Below are positions 2,387-49,078 of a DNA stretch of 64,000 nucleotides, piece after piece. The translations under genes and the position numbers were made by a program. The DNA comes from an uncultured delta proteobacterium (GTDB lineage Bacteria > Desulfobacterota > Desulfobacteria > Desulfobacterales > B30-G6), in the NCBI GenBank assembly GCA_963823335.1, contig CAWGLD010000001.1, forward strand, positions 608,001 through 672,000. The letters run 5' to 3'. Position 1 is the stretch's first letter. Each line of letters begins with the position of its first letter. Below the pieces are notes generated by a model. The model worked only from the letters and a program-made list of their open reading frames with translations. It did not search any database and was not told the origin of the DNA.

Positions 2387-2950
2387 TTAATCCTCATTGT
2401 TTTTATCATTCTTGTGCTCTATCTGTTTGAGCAATAGATCGAAGTCGCTTTCAAAGAGCCGATCCTGAACAATGCGGTACTTCTCAAATTCGGTTTCAGC
2501 ATGGGCCTTTGTCAGCTCAGCGGTTACCTTTCCAGCGTCTTGCAGAATCTCTCTATCCCAGAGTTTCAGGAACCCGCCCAAGCGCTCTTCCCAGTTAGCC
2601 ATGGTCATAGGGATTTTGCGCATGGCCTGCATTTCTGCCATGTCCAGATAGGCCTACACGACTCGCTGCATCTGTCCAAGTTCAAATTCCGAGAGGTAAT
2701 TTTTGGCGATGGATACATCGTATTTATGGATTTTTCCTTTTGGAGCTCCTTCCCAGCTGGTCAGCCCCATGTTTTCTTTTTGGTGGTCTGCACGATCTAC
2801 AATAACCTCAGCCGCTGTATTGCCATGAATGGCATAATGCATCTTGTTTTGGACAGCGGCGAAGAATCGCTTGGTAGCTGTAGCAGACGGATCATAGTCC
2901 AGTGCAGTTGCGTAAATATCGGTGATCTTCTGATAAAACTTGCGCTCGGA
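2387..2950 (-). pseudogene. RhuM-family protein, C-terminal half with in-frame TAG
   Basis: SERKFYQKITDIYATALDYD...VQNKMHYAIHGNTAAE...IAKNYL...RVV*AYLDMAE...QDRLFESDFD is RhuM-like. In-frame TAG at 2654-2656; N-terminus missing. Confidence 0.8.
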
Positions 2951-3178
2951 TATCTGAACATACTTGAAAGTGTTTAGATCAAATGGAACCCTGTCACCTG
3001 AATCCTGAGGTTCAAACAGATAGATAAGCCGGTTTTGCTCATGATGCTTGAGGGCGTAGCCTGCTTCCACATACACATTGGGACGCTGCCCGGTCAGGTC
3101 GCAGATGATGATTTCGGAACCGGCAATGGCTTCATACATTTTCTGATGGATCGGGAATCCTAAGCCTTTGATCCATGA
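2951..3178 (-). pseudogene. Fragment of a nucleoside 2-deoxyribosyltransferase-like domain fused in frame to the RhuM remnant
   Basis: IHQKMYEAIAGSEIIICDLTGQRPNVYVEAGYAL...VPFDL matches the DLT..RPNVY.E.GYA motif of NDT-like domains. Confidence 0.55.
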
Positions 3179-5537: not shown

Positions 5538-5890
5538 TGGTGGAGGCGGCGGGAGTCGAACCCGCGTCCGAAAATAATCCACTGTGACATCTACATGCTT
5601 GTCTCGATGTTTGGTGTTCGCCGTTTCAAGTCTCCATCGAGCAGGATGCTTAAAAGACTATCCTGTTAGAATTTCGCCAGTCTGGTAACAGGATTAACAG
5701 TCCGGCTATCCCGCAAGTCGACGCCCTGTCCGGATTAGCAGGATTGGTCCGGCAGAACGCTAGCCTTAAGCGGCTAGAGCGTAGTTATAATCGTCTGCGA
5801 TTACATTAAGTTCCGTCTTTTTTACGAGCTGACAGAATGCTCGGCATGCAACCAGAGTTTCTTTATCCCCGTCGAAGCCGTTTCGCCCCC
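5538..5890 (-). ncRNA. ssrA: tmRNA (transfer-messenger RNA)
   Basis: 5' GGGGGCGAAACGGCTTCGACGGGG, 3' GCGGGTTCGACTCCCGCCGCCTCCACCA, 353 nt. Tag ORF 5798-5766 reads ADDYNYALAA*. Confidence 0.97.
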
Positions 5891-29293: not shown

Positions 29294-29561
29294 GACGCAA
29301 CATATAGCATACAATACCCGTTGTTGCAACAACATGAAGTGTTCTTGACATAGAACCGGATCCCCATAGAAAGATGTGTTCCAGGTTGCCTGTTCGTCCA
29401 ATACGTGGCCCGTTGGTTTTACGAGTCCATATCCTGATATTGCCGAAATAGACTCCCGATCCTTTCACCGGCCCCCTTGCATTATGCTTTTTTTGGCTAT
29501 AGAATAACTTACCCTTGCCGGGTTCAGCAAATACGAAATGAAACAAGGAGACGAACCGTCC

Positions 29562-30902
29562 ATGAAAAAAGAGAAAGGTTTCAGCGTCAAGGATGTTTTA
29601 AGAGCGGAAGTGGCCCCTGCGCTGGGGTGTACTGAGCCAGTTGCCATCGCACTGGCCGCCGCCGCCGCTGCTTCCCTTATCCCGGGTGAGCCGATTACCG
29701 CTATAGAAATCTGGGTGGATCCCAATATTTACAAGAACGGTATCGCCGTGGTTATTCCCGGAACCAGGGGACTGAACGGCCTGGATTTGGCCGGTGCGCT
29801 GGGTGCGCTGGGTGGTGATCCAGCCCGTCGTCTGGAGGTGCTCGCAACCATCGACAAAACAGTTGTTCGCAATGCCAGGAAACTTCTGGATCGAAAAAAA
29901 GTGTCCATCAACCTCCTGGAAGAGCGGCAGGGAATCTATGTCAAGACCATCGTCAGGAGCAACGATAAGGCAGCCGAAGCCATCATAGAAACTCTGCATG
30001 ACAACATTGTTTCTTTGAAGGTAAATGGACAGCCTGTCGTGGACAACGTGCTCCTGTCCACCGGAAAAGATGGTGGGCAAAAGTCAAAACTCCTGCACGT
30101 AGAGGCGTGGTTGAAACAGCTCAGCCTGATGGAACTGGTTGAACTCCTGGACAATCTGGATGAAGATGATTTCACATTTTTAGAAGAGGGCGTCCAGTAC
30201 AACATGCGTCTGGCTGAATATGGTCTCAAACATGGATCCGGGCTTGGCATCGGCAAAACGCTGGAAAGACTTGTCAGGCTGGGCCTGATCCGGAAAGACA
30301 TGATCGTCGCCTCCAGGATTCTAACCGCTGCAGCGTCCGATGCACGCATGGCGGGTGTCTCCCTGCCAGCCATGAGTTCATCCGGAAGTGGCAATCATGG
30401 GCTTACTGCCATTTTACCCATATGGGCTGTCAAGGATTATGTTGAATGCGACAGACGGGTCGTTCTTGAAGCCATCGGCATCAGTCATATCATTACCGCC
30501 TATGTCAAGGCGCATACGGGCAGGTTGTCTGCCGTTTGCGGTTGTTCTGTGGCCGCGGGCGCAGGTGCAACAGCAGGAATTACCCACCTTCTGAATGGGA
30601 CCCTTGGTCATATGGCCGGCGCCATAACGAACCTTACCGAAGACCTGGCCGGTGTCATTTGTGACGGCGCCAAAGCAGGCTGTTCCCTGAAACTGGCTAC
30701 CGCTGCCGGAACAGCGGTTCAGTCAGCTCTCTTCGCCCTTCAGGGGGTGCAGGTACAATCCACGGATGGCATTATCGCTGCTTCAGCAGAAAAAACAATG
30801 CAGAATATCGGTCGACTGAGCACCCAGGGTATGATCGAAACCGACCGGACCATACTTAAAATTATGCTGGAAAAACAGTTTTCAGATATCAAGGAAATAT
30901 AG
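29562..30902 (+). CDS. L-cysteine desulfidase-like (CyuA/YhaM, serine dehydratase alpha family)
   Basis: PALGCTEPVAIA, SDARMAG...SSSGSGNHG, GRLSAVCGC, GVICDGAKAGC. Confidence 0.88.
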   Translation: MKKEKGFSVKDVLRAEVAPALGCTEPVAIALAAAAAASLIPGEPITAIEIWVDPNIYKNGIAVVIPGTRGLNGLDLAGALGALGGDPARRLEVLATIDKTVVRNARKLLDRKKVSINLLEERQGIYVKTIVRSNDKAAEAIIETLHDNIVSLKVNGQPVVDNVLLSTGKDGGQKSKLLHVEAWLKQLSLMELVELLDNLDEDDFTFLEEGVQYNMRLAEYGLKHGSGLGIGKTLERLVRLGLIRKDMIVASRILTAAASDARMAGVSLPAMSSSGSGNHGLTAILPIWAVKDYVECDRRVVLEAIGISHIITAYVKAHTGRLSAVCGCSVAAGAGATAGITHLLNGTLGHMAGAITNLTEDLAGVICDGAKAGCSLKLATAAGTAVQSALFALQGVQVQSTDGIIAASAEKTMQNIGRLSTQGMIETDRTILKIMLEKQFSDIKEI

Positions 30903-30911
30903 GAGGTAAGC

Positions 30912-31379
30912 ATGCAAACAGCCAAAAACATGGTGGCGGGCAAAGGACGTGAAATCGTGTCGGTTCCCGTGGGAACGACCCTTTTTGCCACCCTTGAAAA
31001 AATGAATCAGAAAAAAGTTGGTGCCATTCTTGTCACCAGAAACGAAAAGATTGTCGGCATCTGGACCGAAAGAGATCTTATGCAGGATGTCATCCAAGGG
31101 GGCTTTGACCTTAAAAACGCGTTGATCGAGGATTACATGACCACCCAACCGATTTCAGCACCCCACACCGATACGGTCTTCAATCTCATGGACAAATTCC
31201 TGGGGCTCAGGGTCAGACACCTGTTGATCGAAGAAAACGGCAACATTATCGGCCTGGTCTCGGGAGGGGATGTCATGAAATGCGTTATCCATGAAAAAGA
31301 CGCCGAGCTGAAACAACTCAATTCCATGGTGAGCTGGGATTACTACGAAAACTGGAAATGGAAACCCGAAGATCGTTGA
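30912..31379 (+). CDS. CBS domain protein
   Basis: KKVGAILV...VGIWTERD...RVRHLLI. Confidence 0.88.
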   Translation: MQTAKNMVAGKGREIVSVPVGTTLFATLEKMNQKKVGAILVTRNEKIVGIWTERDLMQDVIQGGFDLKNALIEDYMTTQPISAPHTDTVFNLMDKFLGLRVRHLLIEENGNIIGLVSGGDVMKCVIHEKDAELKQLNSMVSWDYYENWKWKPEDR

Positions 31380-32090: not shown

Positions 32091-32666
32091 ATGAAAAAAT
32101 ATGACATCATTGACACGGCAACACGGCTTTTTGCCACCCAGGGTTTTGATGGGACAACGACGCTGCAGATCGCAAGGGAAGCCAAGGTCACCGAACCCTT
32201 GATTTATTACCATTTTGAGGGAAAAGACGATCTTTTTACCCATATCATTCGCAATGGCTTCGAGGCCTACTTTACCCGACTGGAATCGCTGAACCAGAAA
32301 ACATCGACACAATTTGAAAAAATTGAAAATATTTTTACCCTGCACTTTGATTTTATCAATGAACGACCGGATGAGATATATCTGGTTGTCAGTGCTTGTC
32401 CGGCCAAACTCAAAGACGCCAAACATATCTGCACACAAAAACTCGATAAGCAGCGCAAGTGGCTCGCGGCATATCTGAGAAAATGTATCAAGGAAGGTAT
32501 TGCGAGCGGTGAATTCAAAGAGATGCCGGTTTCCGAAACCGTAACGCTGCTACTTGCCGTCATCAGCGGCATCATCCGTCAGCGTACGCTGAAACTTGAG
32601 TCCCGCAGGGGAATGAAAAAGGCGGTCGTTGAATTCTGCCGCAGAAGCATGGTGCAGCAGGACTAA
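32091..32666 (+). CDS. TetR/AcrR family transcriptional regulator
   Basis: LFATQGFDGTTTLQIAREAKVTEPLIYYHFEGKDDL HTH. Confidence 0.92.
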   Translation: MKKYDIIDTATRLFATQGFDGTTTLQIAREAKVTEPLIYYHFEGKDDLFTHIIRNGFEAYFTRLESLNQKTSTQFEKIENIFTLHFDFINERPDEIYLVVSACPAKLKDAKHICTQKLDKQRKWLAAYLRKCIKEGIASGEFKEMPVSETVTLLLAVISGIIRQRTLKLESRRGMKKAVVEFCRRSMVQQD

Positions 32667-32673
32667 CCCGGGC

Positions 32674-33180
32674 ATGACACTTGAACCCCAATTGGTTCCC
32701 GTCCTCAGGGAGGGAATCGATGTCATCAAGATGGTTCTGTTCCGGGAACTGAAATCATTGCTGCTTTCCAGGGGCAGGGAACCGGTCTATGTAAACAAGC
32801 TCACGGGCGCTGTGGTGAATGAACTTTTCGGTATCATGCCTCCGGGAGCGGTCATTGAAAGTTTCAGCCGGACAAACCAGGATGCCGTCCAAAAGACACT
32901 GGGAATGATCTCCACAAAACTCGACCACCTCAAGATACCCTTGACAGATGCCCTGCGTATTCAATTTCTTTGTGACAGCCATGAGGGCTTGAACAGCACT
33001 GCTGTTTTGGAAAAAGCCCAAAAGCGTGACATTCTGATTGTAGAAAGGGACGTGCCCCTGCCGGGTGCATTCATGAATATCGTTCGCAGTTTCGGCAGGT
33101 CCTATGGGATCCTTGACCCACAACCATTGACCACACCGGGAACGACACAGACAAACCAGCATGGAGGAATTGTCAAATGA
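32674..33180 (+). CDS. Hypothetical protein in the mttB-mtbB operon
   Basis: Starts 7 nt after tetR; its stop overlaps the mttB start (ATGA). Confidence 0.7.
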   Translation: MTLEPQLVPVLREGIDVIKMVLFRELKSLLLSRGREPVYVNKLTGAVVNELFGIMPPGAVIESFSRTNQDAVQKTLGMISTKLDHLKIPLTDALRIQFLCDSHEGLNSTAVLEKAQKRDILIVERDVPLPGAFMNIVRSFGRSYGILDPQPLTTPGTTQTNQHGGIVK

Positions 33181-34673
33181 ATGAAAAAATTCAGCCACAA
33201 AGGTTGAAACCCCCTGCAGCGACGGGACTCCACATGGATATCCTGTCCGAAAAAGAGCTGAATGACCTCCACGACAGCACCCTTAAAGTCCTGGAAAAAA
33301 CGGGTCTCTTTATCGACAATGATGCGGCTTTGGATTGCTTTGAGAGGGCCGGTGCAAGCATAGATCGCAAAAGCGGCATCGTCAAGATACCGCCGCGGCT
33401 GGTGGAAGAAGCCGTTCAATCCGCCCCTTCAAAGGTCATGCTCGCCGGTCGTGATCCAAAACACGACCTGGTGCTCGGAGAAAATCGTGTTCACTTCACC
33501 AATTTCAGCGAAGGCGTCAAAATCAACGACCCATACACCGGTGAAAACAGGCCACCGGTCAAGAAGGATCTTGCGGATGTCGCACGGGTCATCGATTCTC
33601 TGGATGAAATTGACTTCTGTGAGAAAGCCATCGGCGCCCATGACGTACCCCAGGAGACCGTTCCCCTGCACAATGCCGAAGCTTTCCTCACCAACACCAC
33701 CAAACACTGTGCTTTTGGGCCCGGCAACGGAAATCTGCTCAACAAAATCATCGAAATGGCCGCCATCATCGTCGGCGGCGTCAAACAACTGGCAGAACGA
33801 CCCATCGTGTCATTCACTACCTGTCCGGTGAGTCCTTTGAAGCTGATCAAGGAATGCTGCGAGATCATCATGGTGTCAGCCAAAAACAATGTCGTATGCA
33901 ATATATTGTCCATGGCCATGGCCGGCGCCACATCCCCCGCAACCCTTGCCGGCACCCTGGTGACCCACAACGCGGAAATCCTGGGTGGTATCACGCTTTC
34001 GCAGTTGACCCGCAAGGGGGCTCCCGTGATTTACGGAAGTTCCACCACCGCCATGGATTTGAAGCTGGCCGAAGCATCGGTGGGCACACCCGAGTGCGCC
34101 CTCATCAGCGGCGCCGTAGTTCGGTTGGCGCGCTATTATGCGTTACCCAGCTACGTTGCCGGTGGGTAGGGCGACGGCAAGATATCAGACAGCCAGATGG
34201 GCCACGAAAAAACTCTCACCGGACTGATACCCGCATTGGCAGGTGCCGATATGATTTACGGTCCGGGGATGCTTGAAAGTGGCATCACCTTCGATCTTGC
34301 CCAACTGGTTCTCGACTGTGAATTTGCTCGTATGATAAAACATACCGTCAACGGTATTCCCGTTACCGAAGAGACCATTGCCCTGGGTGTTATCCAGGAA
34401 ATCGGGCCATTTGGCGATTTCCTGGCGCACAGGCACACATTTCAACACATGCGGGAACAATCGAGAGCCGAGATCATCGATCGCAGAATGCGAAGCGCCT
34501 GGGAGATGGACGGCGCCACCGACAGCTATACAAGGGCATGTCACAAGGTCCGCCAGATCCTGGAAAACCATTTTCCGGAGCCACTTCCCCCCGGCGTGCT
34601 GGCCAAGATCCGGCGTATCGTGCAAAAAACGGAGACCGAAATGGGTATTGCAAGCCCTGCTGAATCTTCATAG
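33177..34673 (+). CDS. mttB: Pyrrolysine-containing trimethylamine:corrinoid methyltransferase (TAG at 34167-34169, codon 331)
   Basis: ORFs 33177-34169 and 34197-34673 are in one frame. Context LPSYVAGG-TAG-GDGKISDSQMGHEKT matches the Pyl site of methanogen MttB; 498 aa in total. Confidence 0.93.
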
Positions 34674-34705
34674 TTTAATATGCAAACGAGGGTTCGAGGA
34701 GAAAT

Positions 34706-36127
34706 ATGAATAACCGAATTCTAACCAGAATGGGTGACGGCGAACGAAAATGGCACTCAGAATCCGATGTCCGAGCAGATATCGACCAAGGTACAGCCGA
34801 TGCTGCCAAAAGGGCCGCTATCCCCGCATTGACAGACGAAGAGAAAAGCCAGCTTTTCGATATCATGGCAGATCCCTCCAGAATTGTCAGTGTTCATCCC
34901 GGAGAAGAAGTCATTGTCACCGATGATGGTTGCAGCATGAGTTTCTACTCGGGTCAGGACGGCGGTGGTGTGGGTATTCCCATGAGCCGTATGCAGGCCG
35001 TACTCACCTATGAGCGCGCATGCTGCGGTGACACGACATCCATCGGTCACAGTGATTATTCTTTCAAGCCGGTCAAACCCATCATCAATTTTGAAAAAAA
35101 TGATTATTACAACATTTCCATGGTGTCCACGGCACCCCTTTTCTACGGGGCACAACCCAACATGGGTCTTTACTTTCAACCGGACGGACCCTGCCCCAAC
35201 CCTTCGGAACTTCTCCCCATCGGTAAAATTGCCGAAGCACTTCAGGCACAGGAAGAGGCCGCCGAACATCTGACCAGGGATCTGGTCTATGTCGGCAAGA
35301 AAATGGCCGAAGTGGGGTGTGAAGGACTCAATTTCGACACCTCCGGGTCAGCGGGAGATGCAGATTTCCTGGCAGCCCTCAGGGCCGTGGAAGCATTGAA
35401 GCAGGCAGTTCCGGATATGCCGATACTCATGGGGGCTTCCGGAGAATTCGTTATCGGTATGCACGGTGATGTTGCCTATAAGAATCAGCGTCTGGCGGGT
35501 CTCTACCCTCACGAGCAGGCCAAGGTGGTTTCGGACGCAGGTGCCGATGTTTTTGGTCTTGCCATCGGCACCAATACGACCCGGTCCGTGGCCTGGAATC
35601 TTTCCAGAACAGTGACCTTTCTAAAGGAAACCACCGCCACATCCCCTATTCCGGTGCATGCCAACGTGGGCATGGGTGTCTGCGGTATCCCCATGATGGA
35701 ACAGACACCCATCGACAGTGTGACACGCGTTTCCAAGGCCCTGGTTCAGATTGGTAAAGCAGACGGATTGTAGATTGGCGTAGGTGATCCCTTTGGGATG
35801 CATATGGCCCATATTCTGGCTTCATGCATGGGTGGCATTCGGACTTCCGGAGATCTGGTCGCCTGGATGCAAATAACCCGCAGAATGAAAATTAATGAAG
35901 CCAAAAAATATGTGGCCAAAAAATTGAATGTCAATATTCTGGATCTGACCGACGAAGAGGTGATGCGCCCGATCCGTGAAGAACTGGGTATCGGCGTGGT
36001 TACCTCCGTTGCCGGCAGCCCCAAAGGCATCCGGGCAAAATGGAAAATCGCCGAGCTTCTGGACATTTCCATACGCTCGGTCGACCTGTTCAAATCACAA
36101 CTGTCGCCTGAACATATTATGAGATAG
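34706..36127 (+). CDS. mtbB: Pyrrolysine-containing dimethylamine:corrinoid methyltransferase (TAG at 35771-35773, codon 356)
   Basis: [29 protein letters not shown], then [17 protein letters not shown]...[14 protein letters not shown] matching the MtbB Pyl site; 473 aa in total. Confidence 0.93.
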
Positions 36128-36132
36128 CCGGG

Positions 36133-36735
36133 TTAAGACAAGATACGCGTTTTGCTGCCCATGACCCTTCCTTGACATGCAAAATACTGCAGCGCCATCC
36201 ACAGCTTGACGTCACACATGGCGGTGCCGTCTGCAATGATTCGGGATGCCTCGGCAGAGGACAAGAGACAGACCTGGATGGTTTCGGTCCCTTGGTTTTT
36301 TTCGGTGGAAGGAACACCGTCACAGTCGCAATGGACCAGAGCAACCGATTCATCGGTCAGACCGGCGGTGTTGTACAGGGGTGGACTGATGCCCGTGATG
36401 CATTTCAGCGACAAGCCGGTTTCTTCCATGAGTTCCCGCCGGGCAGCCTCCTCAATGCTTTCACCGTCGTCGATCAGGCCTGCCGGAAATTCATATTGAA
36501 AACCTGCCAGCGATACCCGGTATTCCTTAAGCACAACCAATTTTTGTTCGGTGGTGTGAAACGGGATCATCAACACCGCATCAGGGATATTGAATTGACC
36601 CGAAACACACTTGGGCCGGCGGTTTCTCGATACGATCTGCCAGTTTCTCTTTCCGCCGACTTTATCGGTATAAGATATATCGAACAGGTTGATCCATTTG
36701 GCTTCGGTCAGTTTCTTAAATCCAGTTATTTTCAT
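36133..36735 (-). CDS. NUDIX hydrolase (ADP-ribose pyrophosphatase-like)
   Basis: EFPAGLIDDGESIEEAARRELMEETG Nudix box. Confidence 0.9.
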   Translation of the reverse strand: MKITGFKKLTEAKWINLFDISYTDKVGGKRNWQIVSRNRRPKCVSGQFNIPDAVLMIPFHTTEQKLVVLKEYRVSLAGFQYEFPAGLIDDGESIEEAARRELMEETGLSLKCITGISPPLYNTAGLTDESVALVHCDCDGVPSTEKNQGTETIQVCLLSSAEASRIIADGTAMCDVKLWMALQYFACQGRVMGSKTRILS

Positions 36736-37222: not shown

Positions 37223-37648
37223 ATGATTCAGGTCACATCGAACATTCAAATCCATGAAAGTGATATGACCTTCGATTTCATTCGGGCATCCGGACCGGGA
37301 GGCCAGAATGTGAACAAGGTTTCCACGGCGGTCCAGCTTCGCTTCGCGGCCCTTCAATCCGGCAGTCTTCCCCCCGAGGTTTACTTTCGTCTGAAAAAGC
37401 TGGCGGGAAAACGGATCTCGGCGGAAGGCGTCCTGATTATCCAGGCCAAACGTTTTAGAAGTCAGGAGAAAAACCGTCAGGATGCCATCGAGCGCCTCGT
37501 CAGACTGATCCGGAAAGCAACTGAAAAACCAAAACCGCGCAGGAAAACACGACCTACAAGAGCCTCGAAAGAACGTAAACTGGCTGCCAAACAGCTTAGA
37601 AGCCGTTTGAAAAAAACCCGTCAACGTGTGTCGAGAGCAGACGACTGA
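37223..37648 (+). CDS. arfB: Alternative ribosome rescue peptidyl-tRNA hydrolase ArfB (YaeJ)
   Basis: IRASGPGGQNVNKVSTAVQL...RSQEKNR; basic C-terminal tail. Confidence 0.93.
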   Translation: MIQVTSNIQIHESDMTFDFIRASGPGGQNVNKVSTAVQLRFAALQSGSLPPEVYFRLKKLAGKRISAEGVLIIQAKRFRSQEKNRQDAIERLVRLIRKATEKPKPRRKTRPTRASKERKLAAKQLRSRLKKTRQRVSRADD

Positions 37649-46727: not shown

Positions 46728-47384
46728 TTATTCGGTCTTAGGCCCTTTTTCGTGTTTTCGTACTTTCGTGATTTGGTGATAAAGATCTTTTTCTTTTCCT
46801 GTTTGTCCGGGTTGGCTTATTGTCTGCGACAAAAAATTTCTCAACAACCGTTTGCCCACCGTGGTCATGATGGATTCCGGATGAAACTGGACACCTTCGG
46901 TTGGGTGTTCCCGGTGACGGATACCCATGATCTCGCCATCATCGGATTCCGACGAAATATCGAACACACCCGGCAGAGTATCTCTGTTTACCGCAAGTGA
47001 ATGATAGCGCATGGCCTTGAACGGCGAACGGATTTTTTGATAAATTGCCTTGCCGTCTCCGGTGACATCGGAAGTTTTGCCATGCATGATGTTTTTTGCA
47101 GAAACAATCTGACCCCCAAAAGCCATGGCAATGGCCTGGTGCCCGAGACACACCCCCAGCAAGGGAATTTTACCGCTGAAGATCTGAATGGTATCAACCG
47201 AAATACCGGCATCCTCGGGTCGCCCAGGTCCCGGTGAAATGACGATACCAGAAGGATCTAAGTCCCTGAGCGCATTCACGCTGGTCTTGTCGTTGCGGAA
47301 CACCTGAACATCCGCCCCGAGTTCCTCCATGTATTGCACCAGGTTATAGGTAAACGAGTCATAGTTATCGATCATAATGATCAT
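46728..47384 (-). CDS. trpG: Anthranilate synthase component II (glutamine amidotransferase)
   Basis: MIDNYDSFTYNL, SPGPG, GVCLGHQ, QFHPES. Confidence 0.95.
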   Translation of the reverse strand: MIIMIDNYDSFTYNLVQYMEELGADVQVFRNDKTSVNALRDLDPSGIVISPGPGRPEDAGISVDTIQIFSGKIPLLGVCLGHQAIAMAFGGQIVSAKNIMHGKTSDVTGDGKAIYQKIRSPFKAMRYHSLAVNRDTLPGVFDISSESDDGEIMGIRHREHPTEGVQFHPESIMTTVGKRLLRNFLSQTISQPGQTGKEKDLYHQITKVRKHEKGPKTE

Positions 47385-47471
47385 GTCCGTTCTCCTTTCA
47401 GTAAATCCATTGTATGCTGGAAAACGAGGATGCCTGGAAACTGGGATGCTGCTGTCAGCCACCCTCGAACC

Positions 47472-48947
47472 CTACTCTTGCATCATCTCCAGGGCTTTCT
47501 GGATTGACATGGCTTTGTTGACGGTTTCGGCATACTCCTTCTCCGGGTCGGAATCGACAACAATACCGGCCCCGGCTCTCACGGTCAGACGGCCCTTTTC
47601 GATACAGGCCGTACGAATCGTTATGGCCAGATCCATGTTGCCGCCGAATGAAATGTAGCCCACGGCACCGCCATAAGGTCCCCGCGGTTCGGTTTCGAAC
47701 ATGGAAATCAGCTCCATGGCCCGCACCTTGGGTGCGCCGCTCAGGGTTCCTGCCGGGAAGGTGGCTTTCAGAAGATCCCAGGCGTTCAGGTCACCCCTGA
47801 GATCACAGCAGATATTGGATACCATGTGCATGACGTGCGAATAACGTTCGATGATCATCAGATCCGTAACCTGCACGGTACCTGTCTCGGCAACACGTCC
47901 GAGATCGTTTCTACCCAGATCCACCAGCATGAGATGTTCGGCTTTTTCTTTTTCATCTTTGAGCAGTTCATCGGCCAGGGCGCGGTCCTCTTTTTCTGTT
48001 TCGCCCCTTGGCCGCGTACCGGCGATAGGTCGCAGTGTGGCAACCCCATTTTCAAGACGCACCATGGTTTCCGGCGAAGACCCCACCAGGGTTATGTCGT
48101 CCAGTTTCATGAAATAGAGATACGGTGAGGGATTGATGTAACGCTGGGCCCTGTACAACAGCCATGGGTCAGGAGCCGCGTCATATACAAATGGCTGGGA
48201 AATGACGGCCTGAATGATATCTCCCTGATAAATGAACGCTTTGATTTTCTTGACAATGTCCTGGTACGACGATGCCTGGGGAGATACCCGCAGGACAGGT
48301 TTGTGCGTTAAAAACTTTGTACGCATTTTTGGAACCGGTGAGGCAATAATGTGCAAAATTTCCTTTATGCGGTCATGGGCCTTGTCGAATACGTCTGCGG
48401 GTGCCATGCCATCTGAAATAAATCCCGTCACGACGCAGTAAAGCGTGTGACGGACATTATCAAAAATGATCAACTCATCCGGCAGAATAAAATGCGCCAG
48501 GGGTTTGGCGGAATCATACTGATGTGGAATCGCTTCGAAAAATGAAACCATCTCGTAGGACAGATAACCCACGATACCACCCCAGAAGCGTGGCAGGTCG
48601 GAAATCTGTGCCGGTAAATACCGCGCCATAAAGCCTTTCAGAATCTTTAACGGATCACCCTTGTGGGGAAGACTTTCCGATTGGTCTGCGGTCTGGATTT
48701 CGACTGCCTCGGCATACACCTTGAGGTGACATTTTGCCGATATACCCAAAAAGCTGAAACGACCCCAGCGTTCCCCTCCGGCGGCGCTTTCCAGCAGAAA
48801 GACAGGCTTGGGGGTGTCATAGAATTTCTGTAGAATGGAGACGGGTGTTTCCGTATCCGCCAGAATCTCCACCCAAACCGGTATCACATTAAATTTTTTG
48901 GCAAGTTCGCAAAATCTTGCTTTGTCCGGTAGTTGATTGATCTGCAT
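47472..48947 (-). CDS. trpE: Anthranilate synthase component I
   Basis: LLES, NPSPY, PIAGTRPRG, EHLMLVDLGRND, FPAGTLSGAPKVRAM. Confidence 0.96.
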   Translation of the reverse strand: MQINQLPDKARFCELAKKFNVIPVWVEILADTETPVSILQKFYDTPKPVFLLESAAGGERWGRFSFLGISAKCHLKVYAEAVEIQTADQSESLPHKGDPLKILKGFMARYLPAQISDLPRFWGGIVGYLSYEMVSFFEAIPHQYDSAKPLAHFILPDELIIFDNVRHTLYCVVTGFISDGMAPADVFDKAHDRIKEILHIIASPVPKMRTKFLTHKPVLRVSPQASSYQDIVKKIKAFIYQGDIIQAVISQPFVYDAAPDPWLLYRAQRYINPSPYLYFMKLDDITLVGSSPETMVRLENGVATLRPIAGTRPRGETEKEDRALADELLKDEKEKAEHLMLVDLGRNDLGRVAETGTVQVTDLMIIERYSHVMHMVSNICCDLRGDLNAWDLLKATFPAGTLSGAPKVRAMELISMFETEPRGPYGGAVGYISFGGNMDLAITIRTACIEKGRLTVRAGAGIVVDSDPEKEYAETVNKAMSIQKALEMMQE

Positions 48948-48974
48948 TGAATCTGTCTCCTTCATACCCATGCT

Positions 48975-49078
48975 GTTTGTCAGAATAACGTTCCGAAACT
49001 GCTTCGGCAAATAACGTCAAACAGCCGCCGAAGCGTTAGCCTAAAGCCAAACGGAGCATCCTTATGACAACGGCTATA
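48975..49078. repeat. Diverged family C-related element upstream of trpE
   Basis: TTGTCAGAATAACGTTCCGAAA...TTATGACAACGGCTATA resembles the ends of 16480-16578. Confidence 0.5.

Follow-up and report, generated by a model that had tools for sequence, protein, structure and literature searches.

In Methanosarcina acetivorans, according to passages of two recent papers, UAG serves both as a stop codon and as the codon for pyrrolysine (Pyl), with no cis element being needed (Shalvarjian et al. 2025, PMC12626013; Britt et al. 2026, PMC13663744). The same passages describe a release factor that competes with Pyl-tRNA at any UAG in Pyl-encoding methanogens (PMC12626013, PMC13663744). The rnfA gene of M. 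acetivorans ends in TAG and has a hypothetical C-terminal extension, while its homologues end in TAA or TGA; in the part of the paper concerned, this TAG is argued to be a bona fide stop (PMC12626013). TAG stops have a median share of 5% in Pyl-positive archaea in that account (PMC12626013), and genes of Pyl bacteria still often stop at TAG, as stated in portions of two other papers (PMC1976440, PMC3941956). Pyl-using Deltaproteobacteria and Desulfobacterales carry several copies of mttB and mtbB, and no PYLIS-like element was found (Zhang & Gladyshev 2007, PMC1976440; Kivenson et al. 2021, PMC8318568); the passages of these two papers considered here hold no discussion of the terminal stops of the methyltransferase genes or of the junction between mttB and mtbB. 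This study concerns one such junction, in a 64,000-nucleotide stretch (the window) of an uncultured delta proteobacterium of the Desulfobacterales (GenBank assembly GCA_963823335.1, contig CAWGLD010000001.1, positions 608,001 to 672,000). Its mttB gene ends in a second amber codon, and read-through of this codon would bring ribosomes to the start codon of mtbB. An initial annotation, made from the sequence alone, had proposed that Pyl availability could gate translational coupling to mtbB through this codon. The analysis reported here indicates that the codon is very probably an ordinary stop, of recent origin in this lineage, with incidental partial read-through.

The mttB gene (33177-34673; this and all features below lie on the + strand unless marked otherwise) encodes a trimethylamine:corrinoid methyltransferase, which matches TIGR02369 at 718.1 bits against a cut-off of 525 and also the Pfam family MTTB (PF06253; 2.8e-93, 313 bits against 25). 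Its internal Pyl codon is the TAG at 34167-34169 (O331), which aligns with the TAG of a paralogue in the same genome and with that of 57 other loci. The next gene, mtbB (34706-36127), encodes a dimethylamine:corrinoid methyltransferase (PF09505; TIGR02368 at 544.8 bits against a cut-off of 369.1, with Pfam concurring). Its internal Pyl codon is the TAG at 35771-35773 (O356), and TAG stands at the same position in 79 of 79 aligned copies. The terminal amber of mttB was read from the sequence at 34671-34673. Translated past this codon, the frame runs through 11 sense codons and a TGA (34674-34709), so that a terminal TAG read as Pyl would give MttB a 12-residue tail. The closing TGA (34707-34709) overlaps the ATG of mtbB (34706-34708) as ATGA (34706-34709). 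The mtbB gene also has a Shine-Dalgarno (SD) sequence of its own, GAGGAG at 34696-34701, 4 nucleotides ahead of the ATG. It likewise ends in TAG (36125-36127), followed by CCG GGT and then TAA at 36134-36136, the third codon past the terminal TAG. The family models end earlier than the reading frames, TIGR02369 at residue 486 of MttB and TIGR02368 at residue 466 of MtbB. Every one of the positions in the initial annotation proved accurate: the terminal TAG of mttB and the TGA of its read-through frame, the TAG of mtbB with the TAA behind it, the separate SD sequence of mtbB, and the ATGA by which the open reading frame (ORF) upstream joins mttB (TGA 33178-33180, ATG 33177). As a side observation, codon 467 of mtbB (36104-36106) is TCG in the window and a stop in positional orthologues, TAG in L002 (1500-1540), L004-L007 and L009 and TAA in L003 and L008. 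Because most close orthologues stop there, the MtbB of the window appears to have lost an ancestral stop, with 7 extra codons (SPEHIMR) leading to the next TAG.

A scan for orthologous junctions, with one genome taken per species, gave 80 loci with a relative of mtbB. A Pyl-type mttB ended no more than 600 nucleotides upstream of mtbB at 58 of the 80 loci, 13 had none within that distance, and at the other 9 the contig end lay too near to tell. Among the seven closest mttB orthologues (L003-L008 and L016; 85.5-90.3% identity), the stop is always TAA or TGA and never TAG. Five of them have the junction TAA-t-ATG, L003 has TGA with a 9-nucleotide gap, and L006 has TAA with a 25-nucleotide gap. 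The closest loci have in common the TetR gene and the gene for a 168-amino-acid ORF on the upstream side and the NUDIX and ArfB genes on the downstream side, and are therefore positional orthologues. A terminal TAG was found at 4 of the 58 other junctions (L014, L065, L067 and L072), and the next stop touches the mtbB start at none of the four. In addition, the pair of mttB and mtbB paralogues that lies beside the pyl genes of the same genome has TAA at the end of mttB, a 13-nucleotide spacer and a separate SD sequence for mtbB. The situation thus resembles that described in passages on M. acetivorans rnfA: TAG in one gene, TAA or TGA in the homologues, and no conserved extension (PMC12626013).

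In the DNA alignment, the window and L006 carry about 30-40 extra bases between the conserved C-terminus of MttB and the start of mtbB; the tail of L006 has the same length as that of the window, is unalike in sequence, and has TAA where the window has TAG. Past residue ~491, the MttB tail is unalignable among relatives and has no counterpart in the 58 other loci. A 95%-identical relative (DNA run X5) matches the window no further than 34655, and its gene ends five codons on in TAA. Junction overlaps occur at 12 of the 58 loci, comprising ten 4-nucleotide NTGA overlaps, one TAATG and one of 8 nucleotides (with a guessed start); a further five junctions have a 1-nucleotide gap, which gives tight coupling in 17. 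Tight coupling of mttB and mtbB is itself a conserved feature, as judged from these sequences. No clear SD sequence precedes mtbB in the alignment of the TAA-t-ATG loci, and the inserted segment of the window supplies the canonical GAGGAG. An inserted segment with its own GAGGAG means that the window junction looks like a derived, loosened form in which mtbB would be initiated independently. The ATGA overlap is the commonest gene overlap in prokaryotes, and the overlap associated with coupling by termination-reinitiation has direct counterparts here, at the junction of the 168-amino-acid ORF with mttB and at the NTGA overlaps of mttB and mtbB in the ten other loci. The junction under study differs from a direct ATGA overlap in that the mttB stop lies 35 nucleotides upstream of the mtbB ATG and only read-through leads to the ATGA. 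One further locus, L002, has the closest MtbB (93.7% identity); no mttB lies in the 106 bases before its mtbB (L002 1-106), which hold a T-run and a different SD sequence, and the contig starts there.

The genome that contains the window comprises 4.37 Mb in 11 contigs with 49% G+C, and its nearest relatives among public genomes are metagenome-assembled genomes of Desulfobacterales and 'delta proteobacterium'. The Pyl-decoding trait is complete in it (pylT, pylSc, pylSn, pylB, pylC and pylD). The tRNA-Pyl gene pylT, with a CUA anticodon, lies at 80111-80184 of a contig here called C2, and is adjoined by pylSc, pylC, pylD and pylSn, whose products scored 326 (PylSc), 390 (PylC), 251 (PylD) and 132 bits (PylSn), all above the NCBIfam cut-offs. 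The pylB gene is apart from the others, at 1461420-1462460 of contig C1 (455 bits against a cut-off of 348). The pylT-pylSc-pylC-pylD-pylSn cluster (C2:76650-80184) is thus on a different contig from pylB, and an IS200-like transposase gene lies near it (L001 5871-7091). The neighbourhood of the pyl genes also encodes a corrinoid protein and the second mttB-mtbB pair. With six Pyl-type mttB and five mtbB copies, the genome is like those of the Pyl-using Deltaproteobacteria and Desulfobacterales as portrayed in parts of the literature, with which it shares gene families, lineage and multiple copies (PMC1976440, PMC8318568).

TAG is a normal stop codon in this genome. The 3537 crude gene calls end 783 times in TAG (22%), 1499 times in TAA and 1255 times in TGA, and release factor RF1 is encoded (526 bits against a cut-off of 423). 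In this respect the organism is unlike the Pyl-encoding methanogens: it is a bacterium that has RF1 and ends about 22% of its genes in TAG, as compared with the archaeal median of 5% given in the passage on that point (PMC12626013). Regulated expansion of the code in bacteria, depending on the carbon source, as cited in a passage of PMC3941956, offers a possible parallel, since pyl genes that are on only with methylamines would explain how tRNA-Pyl is tolerated alongside 22% TAG stops. One of the six Pyl-type mttB copies ends in TAG. Among the 11 Pyl genes of the genome together, there is no excess of terminal TAG (4 of 11 against the background of 22%, P = 0.21).

Genome-wide controls gave no sign that TAG-ended genes are arranged for read-through. 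No backup-stop signature follows TAG: a TAA or TGA is found no more than three codons on after 7.7% of TAG, 12.5% of TAA and 12.8% of TGA stops, and the median distance to the next TAA or TGA is 20 codons after TAG, 18 after TAA and 17 after TGA. The TAA behind mtbB is therefore unremarkable. The junction pattern was scored wherever the next TAA or TGA past the first stop makes NTGA together with a possible start codon of a gene called downstream, a loose criterion for starts. It was found in 41 of 783 TAG-ended genes (5.2%), 79 of 1499 TAA-ended genes (5.3%) and 115 of 1255 TGA-ended genes, with no excess for TAG over the TAA control, where no read-through can act, and with a higher share in the TGA control. 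Direct NTGA overlaps of genes numbered 215 among the 3537 calls. A next gene in frame was near chance after TAG (64 of 783, including about 11 split Pyl genes), as compared with 90 of 1499 after TAA and 56 of 1255 after TGA. Two such cases lie in the window, both at chance level. A TAG-ended SDH_alpha-like gene is followed in frame by a CBS-domain gene (29538-31379) with no other stop, and a TAG-ended trpE is followed in frame by trpG (46728-49010, - strand) with no other stop between them.

The folding of the junction and the variation among strains were also considered. Compared with dinucleotide shuffles, the junction gave z = 0.11 (121 nucleotides) and -0.26 (61 nucleotides), which indicates neither a stimulatory nor an SD-masking structure. 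In the sole centroid helix, the SD region is paired to codons immediately ahead of the TAG, and in this predicted fold the helix would be melted in any case by a ribosome that terminates at the TAG. The junction is spanned by two contigs from metatranscriptomes (X11 record 4, 34440-35400; X7 record 26, 34218-34717); they attest to sequence, and are no measure of transcript unity, expression or translation. These contigs, from strains 98-99% identical to the window, span 34671-34673 with no difference there, and the ATGA is retained. Within the read-through segment they carry two variants, 34685 A>T (Q>H) and the silent 34688 G>A. Between near-identical strains, two changes over the 11 codons, one a replacement and the other silent, are too few for a rate test. 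Neither the alignment of orthologues nor the strain contigs revealed conservation or coding constraint of the extension peptide.

The TAG at 34671 is, in all likelihood, an ordinary, lineage-specific and recently acquired stop of mttB that is subject to incidental partial read-through. Most ribosomes would end at this codon, and mtbB would be initiated from its own GAGGAG, possibly aided by ordinary termination-reinitiation 32 nucleotides downstream. The Pyl system should be on exactly when mttB is translated, and a share of the ribosomes then probably inserts Pyl at the terminal UAG. Judged by the analogous case of M. acetivorans, some read-through of this codon is likely while the pyl genes are on. 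MttB made by read-through would gain the non-conserved 12-residue tail and terminate at the TGA of the ATGA. The landing of the read-through frame on the ATGA would then be a coincidence of frame and of a second codon of mtbB that begins with A. The initial annotation had itself hedged that the arrangement might be chance, and this hedge is favoured by the orthologues, by the genome-wide evidence and by the separate SD sequence of mtbB. Its other suggestion, decoding of the terminal TAG as Pyl, is plausible as an occasional event because the full Pyl machinery is present; such decoding would be a by-product of the UAG ambiguity that has already been described.

The gating that the initial annotation had put forward goes further. 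In this reading, selection would have made the terminal UAG into a second gate, at which only plentiful Pyl-tRNA lets ribosomes reach the ATGA and reinitiate on mtbB, thereby tuning the ratio of MtbB to MttB to the Pyl supply. The frame relationship on which it builds is real, the 4-nucleotide NTGA overlap is the junction at 10 of the 58 other loci, and the TAG is retained in the X7 and X11 strains. The comparison with orthologous operons, which the initial annotation had suggested as a check, came out against it: TAG ends mttB in none of the seven closest orthologues, the frame relationship occurs at none of the four other TAG-ended mttB genes, and the paralogous mttB ends in TAA. The pattern is also not enriched across the genome relative to the TAA control. 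A gate that needs read-through ribosomes to open the mtbB start would be expected to come with a masking structure; mtbB has its own GAGGAG, and no SD-masking structure beats the shuffles. Moreover, such a gate would be redundant. The internal UAG at 34167 must be decoded as Pyl for a ribosome to reach 34671, so coupling from mttB to mtbB should already depend on Pyl, here and in every orthologue, and a second amber would therefore add no new information. A search of literature titles and abstracts, which was not exhaustive, found no description of Pyl-gated coupling. We consider a selected gate of this kind very unlikely. Obligate sense reading, which would make TAG 34671 a genuine second Pyl codon and put the actual C-terminus of MttB at the TGA at 34707, is highly improbable as well. 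The complete Pyl machinery and the frame that stays open to the TGA are consistent with it, whereas RF1 is present, TAG ends 22% of genes, the family model stops at residue 486, the 12-residue tail lacks a counterpart in the 58 other loci, and one of its amino acids changes between near-identical strains.

A relay through a short reading frame would do without Pyl at the terminal codon: ribosomes released at TAG 34671 would restart at the ATG at 34680, 6 nucleotides past the TAG, translate a 9-codon mini-ORF (MQTRVRGEI, 34680-34709) that closes at the ATGA, and restart on mtbB. This mini-ORF is retained in the X7 and X11 strains. However, no SD sequence precedes 34680, L006 and the other close loci have no equivalent, and the SD sequence of mtbB makes the relay unnecessary; we regard it as extremely unlikely. 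The suspicion that a sequencing or assembly error has turned TAA or a sense codon into this TAG can be set aside with near certainty, since the independent X7 and X11 RNA contigs cover the codon and show the terminal TAG intact, which excludes an assembly slip.

Several points weigh against treating the terminal TAG as an ordinary stop. The genome-wide counts rest on a crude caller based on ORFs and codon usage, in which each of the 11 Pyl genes was counted as two halves. Three of the five Pyl-type mtbB copies in the genome end in TAG (naive binomial P = 0.076). The ten direct 4-nucleotide NTGA overlaps sit in more distant loci and make ribosome delivery to that exact site a used solution in this operon family. 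A terminal TAG on Pyl-type mttB elsewhere (4 of 57) is rarer than the 22% of this genome, with P = 0.002, and once the 17 junctions in which the overlap allows only TAA or TGA are removed, the scarcity still gives P = 0.03; both P values are naive, as the loci are interrelated and the background is that of the window genome, not those genomes' own. These figures hint at less than full neutrality for an amber codon at the end of mttB, in which case the exception in the window could matter. The retention of the TAG and ATGA in the X7 and X11 strains shows little at 98-99% identity. If the scarcity is real, a terminal amber would be mildly disfavoured, which makes the window an exception and is not evidence of a device. 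On mtbB, the frequency of terminal TAG elsewhere is ordinary (18 of 77, P = 0.44 by the same naive comparison).

Three of the surveyed loci (L021 5411-6080, L025 5411-6080 and L049 2719-3400) have a TAG-ended mtbB that is in frame for 221-224 codons with the downstream corrinoid (B12-binding) protein, with no other stop. Read-through at these loci would make a fusion of MtbB and the corrinoid protein. A broader proposal would have the terminal ambers of methyltransferase genes in Pyl-decoding Desulfobacterales read through usefully on methylamines and exploited by selection, such that MtbB:MttB rises with the Pyl supply through the ATGA in the window and MtbB-corrinoid fusions are made at L021, L025 and L049. 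We think the chances of this are slim.

The mttB and mtbB genes belong to an operon in the order TetR gene, 168-amino-acid ORF, mttB and mtbB, which is followed by a NUDIX gene on the opposite strand. The TetR-family regulator (32091-32666; Pfam TetR_N, 1.9e-17) is the first gene of the operon, and in L005-L010 a tetR of 80-93% identity likewise lies upstream of mttB. The 168-amino-acid ORF (32674-33180), whose TGA forms the ATGA overlap with the mttB ATG noted above, belongs to no known family and was recognized by conservation in tblastn searches. It lies upstream of mttB at 8 of the 80 loci (L004-L010 and L017), in the close clade only, with 51-79% identity. It is single-copy in the genome and had no match in Pfam, NCBIfam or Atlas. 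The window also encodes the alternative ribosome-rescue peptidyl-tRNA hydrolase ArfB (37223-37648; NF006718, 181 bits against a cut-off of 100); its gene lies 1.1 kb downstream of mtbB and is syntenic with mtbB and the NUDIX gene in 10 related loci, a linkage that is probably merely a conserved neighbourhood. A tmRNA gene with the tag peptide ADDYNYALAA is found at 5538-5890 (- strand). A RhuM-family gene (2387-3139, - strand) has an in-frame TAG within its Pfam domain, with profile positions 81-184 matched before the codon and 190-249 after it; either the gene is a nonsense pseudogene, or its TAG is a candidate Pyl codon.

In sum, the junction of mttB and mtbB in the window is best read as a case of the already known ambiguity of UAG, here where a Pyl gene ends and in a bacterium for which TAG has remained a frequent stop. 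The true ends and the Pyl codons of both genes are thereby defined, and a survey of 58 mttB-mtbB junctions is provided. A true Pyl-gated coupler at this junction would be the first known case in nature of a recoded stop that serves twice within one operon to set enzyme stoichiometry; the findings speak against it. Considering that tRNA-Pyl and common TAG stops occur together in this bacterium, TAG-ended genes translated while the Pyl system is on probably yield a minor extended form of their products, and any gene coupled behind a Pyl gene would be Pyl-dependent through the internal UAG alone.

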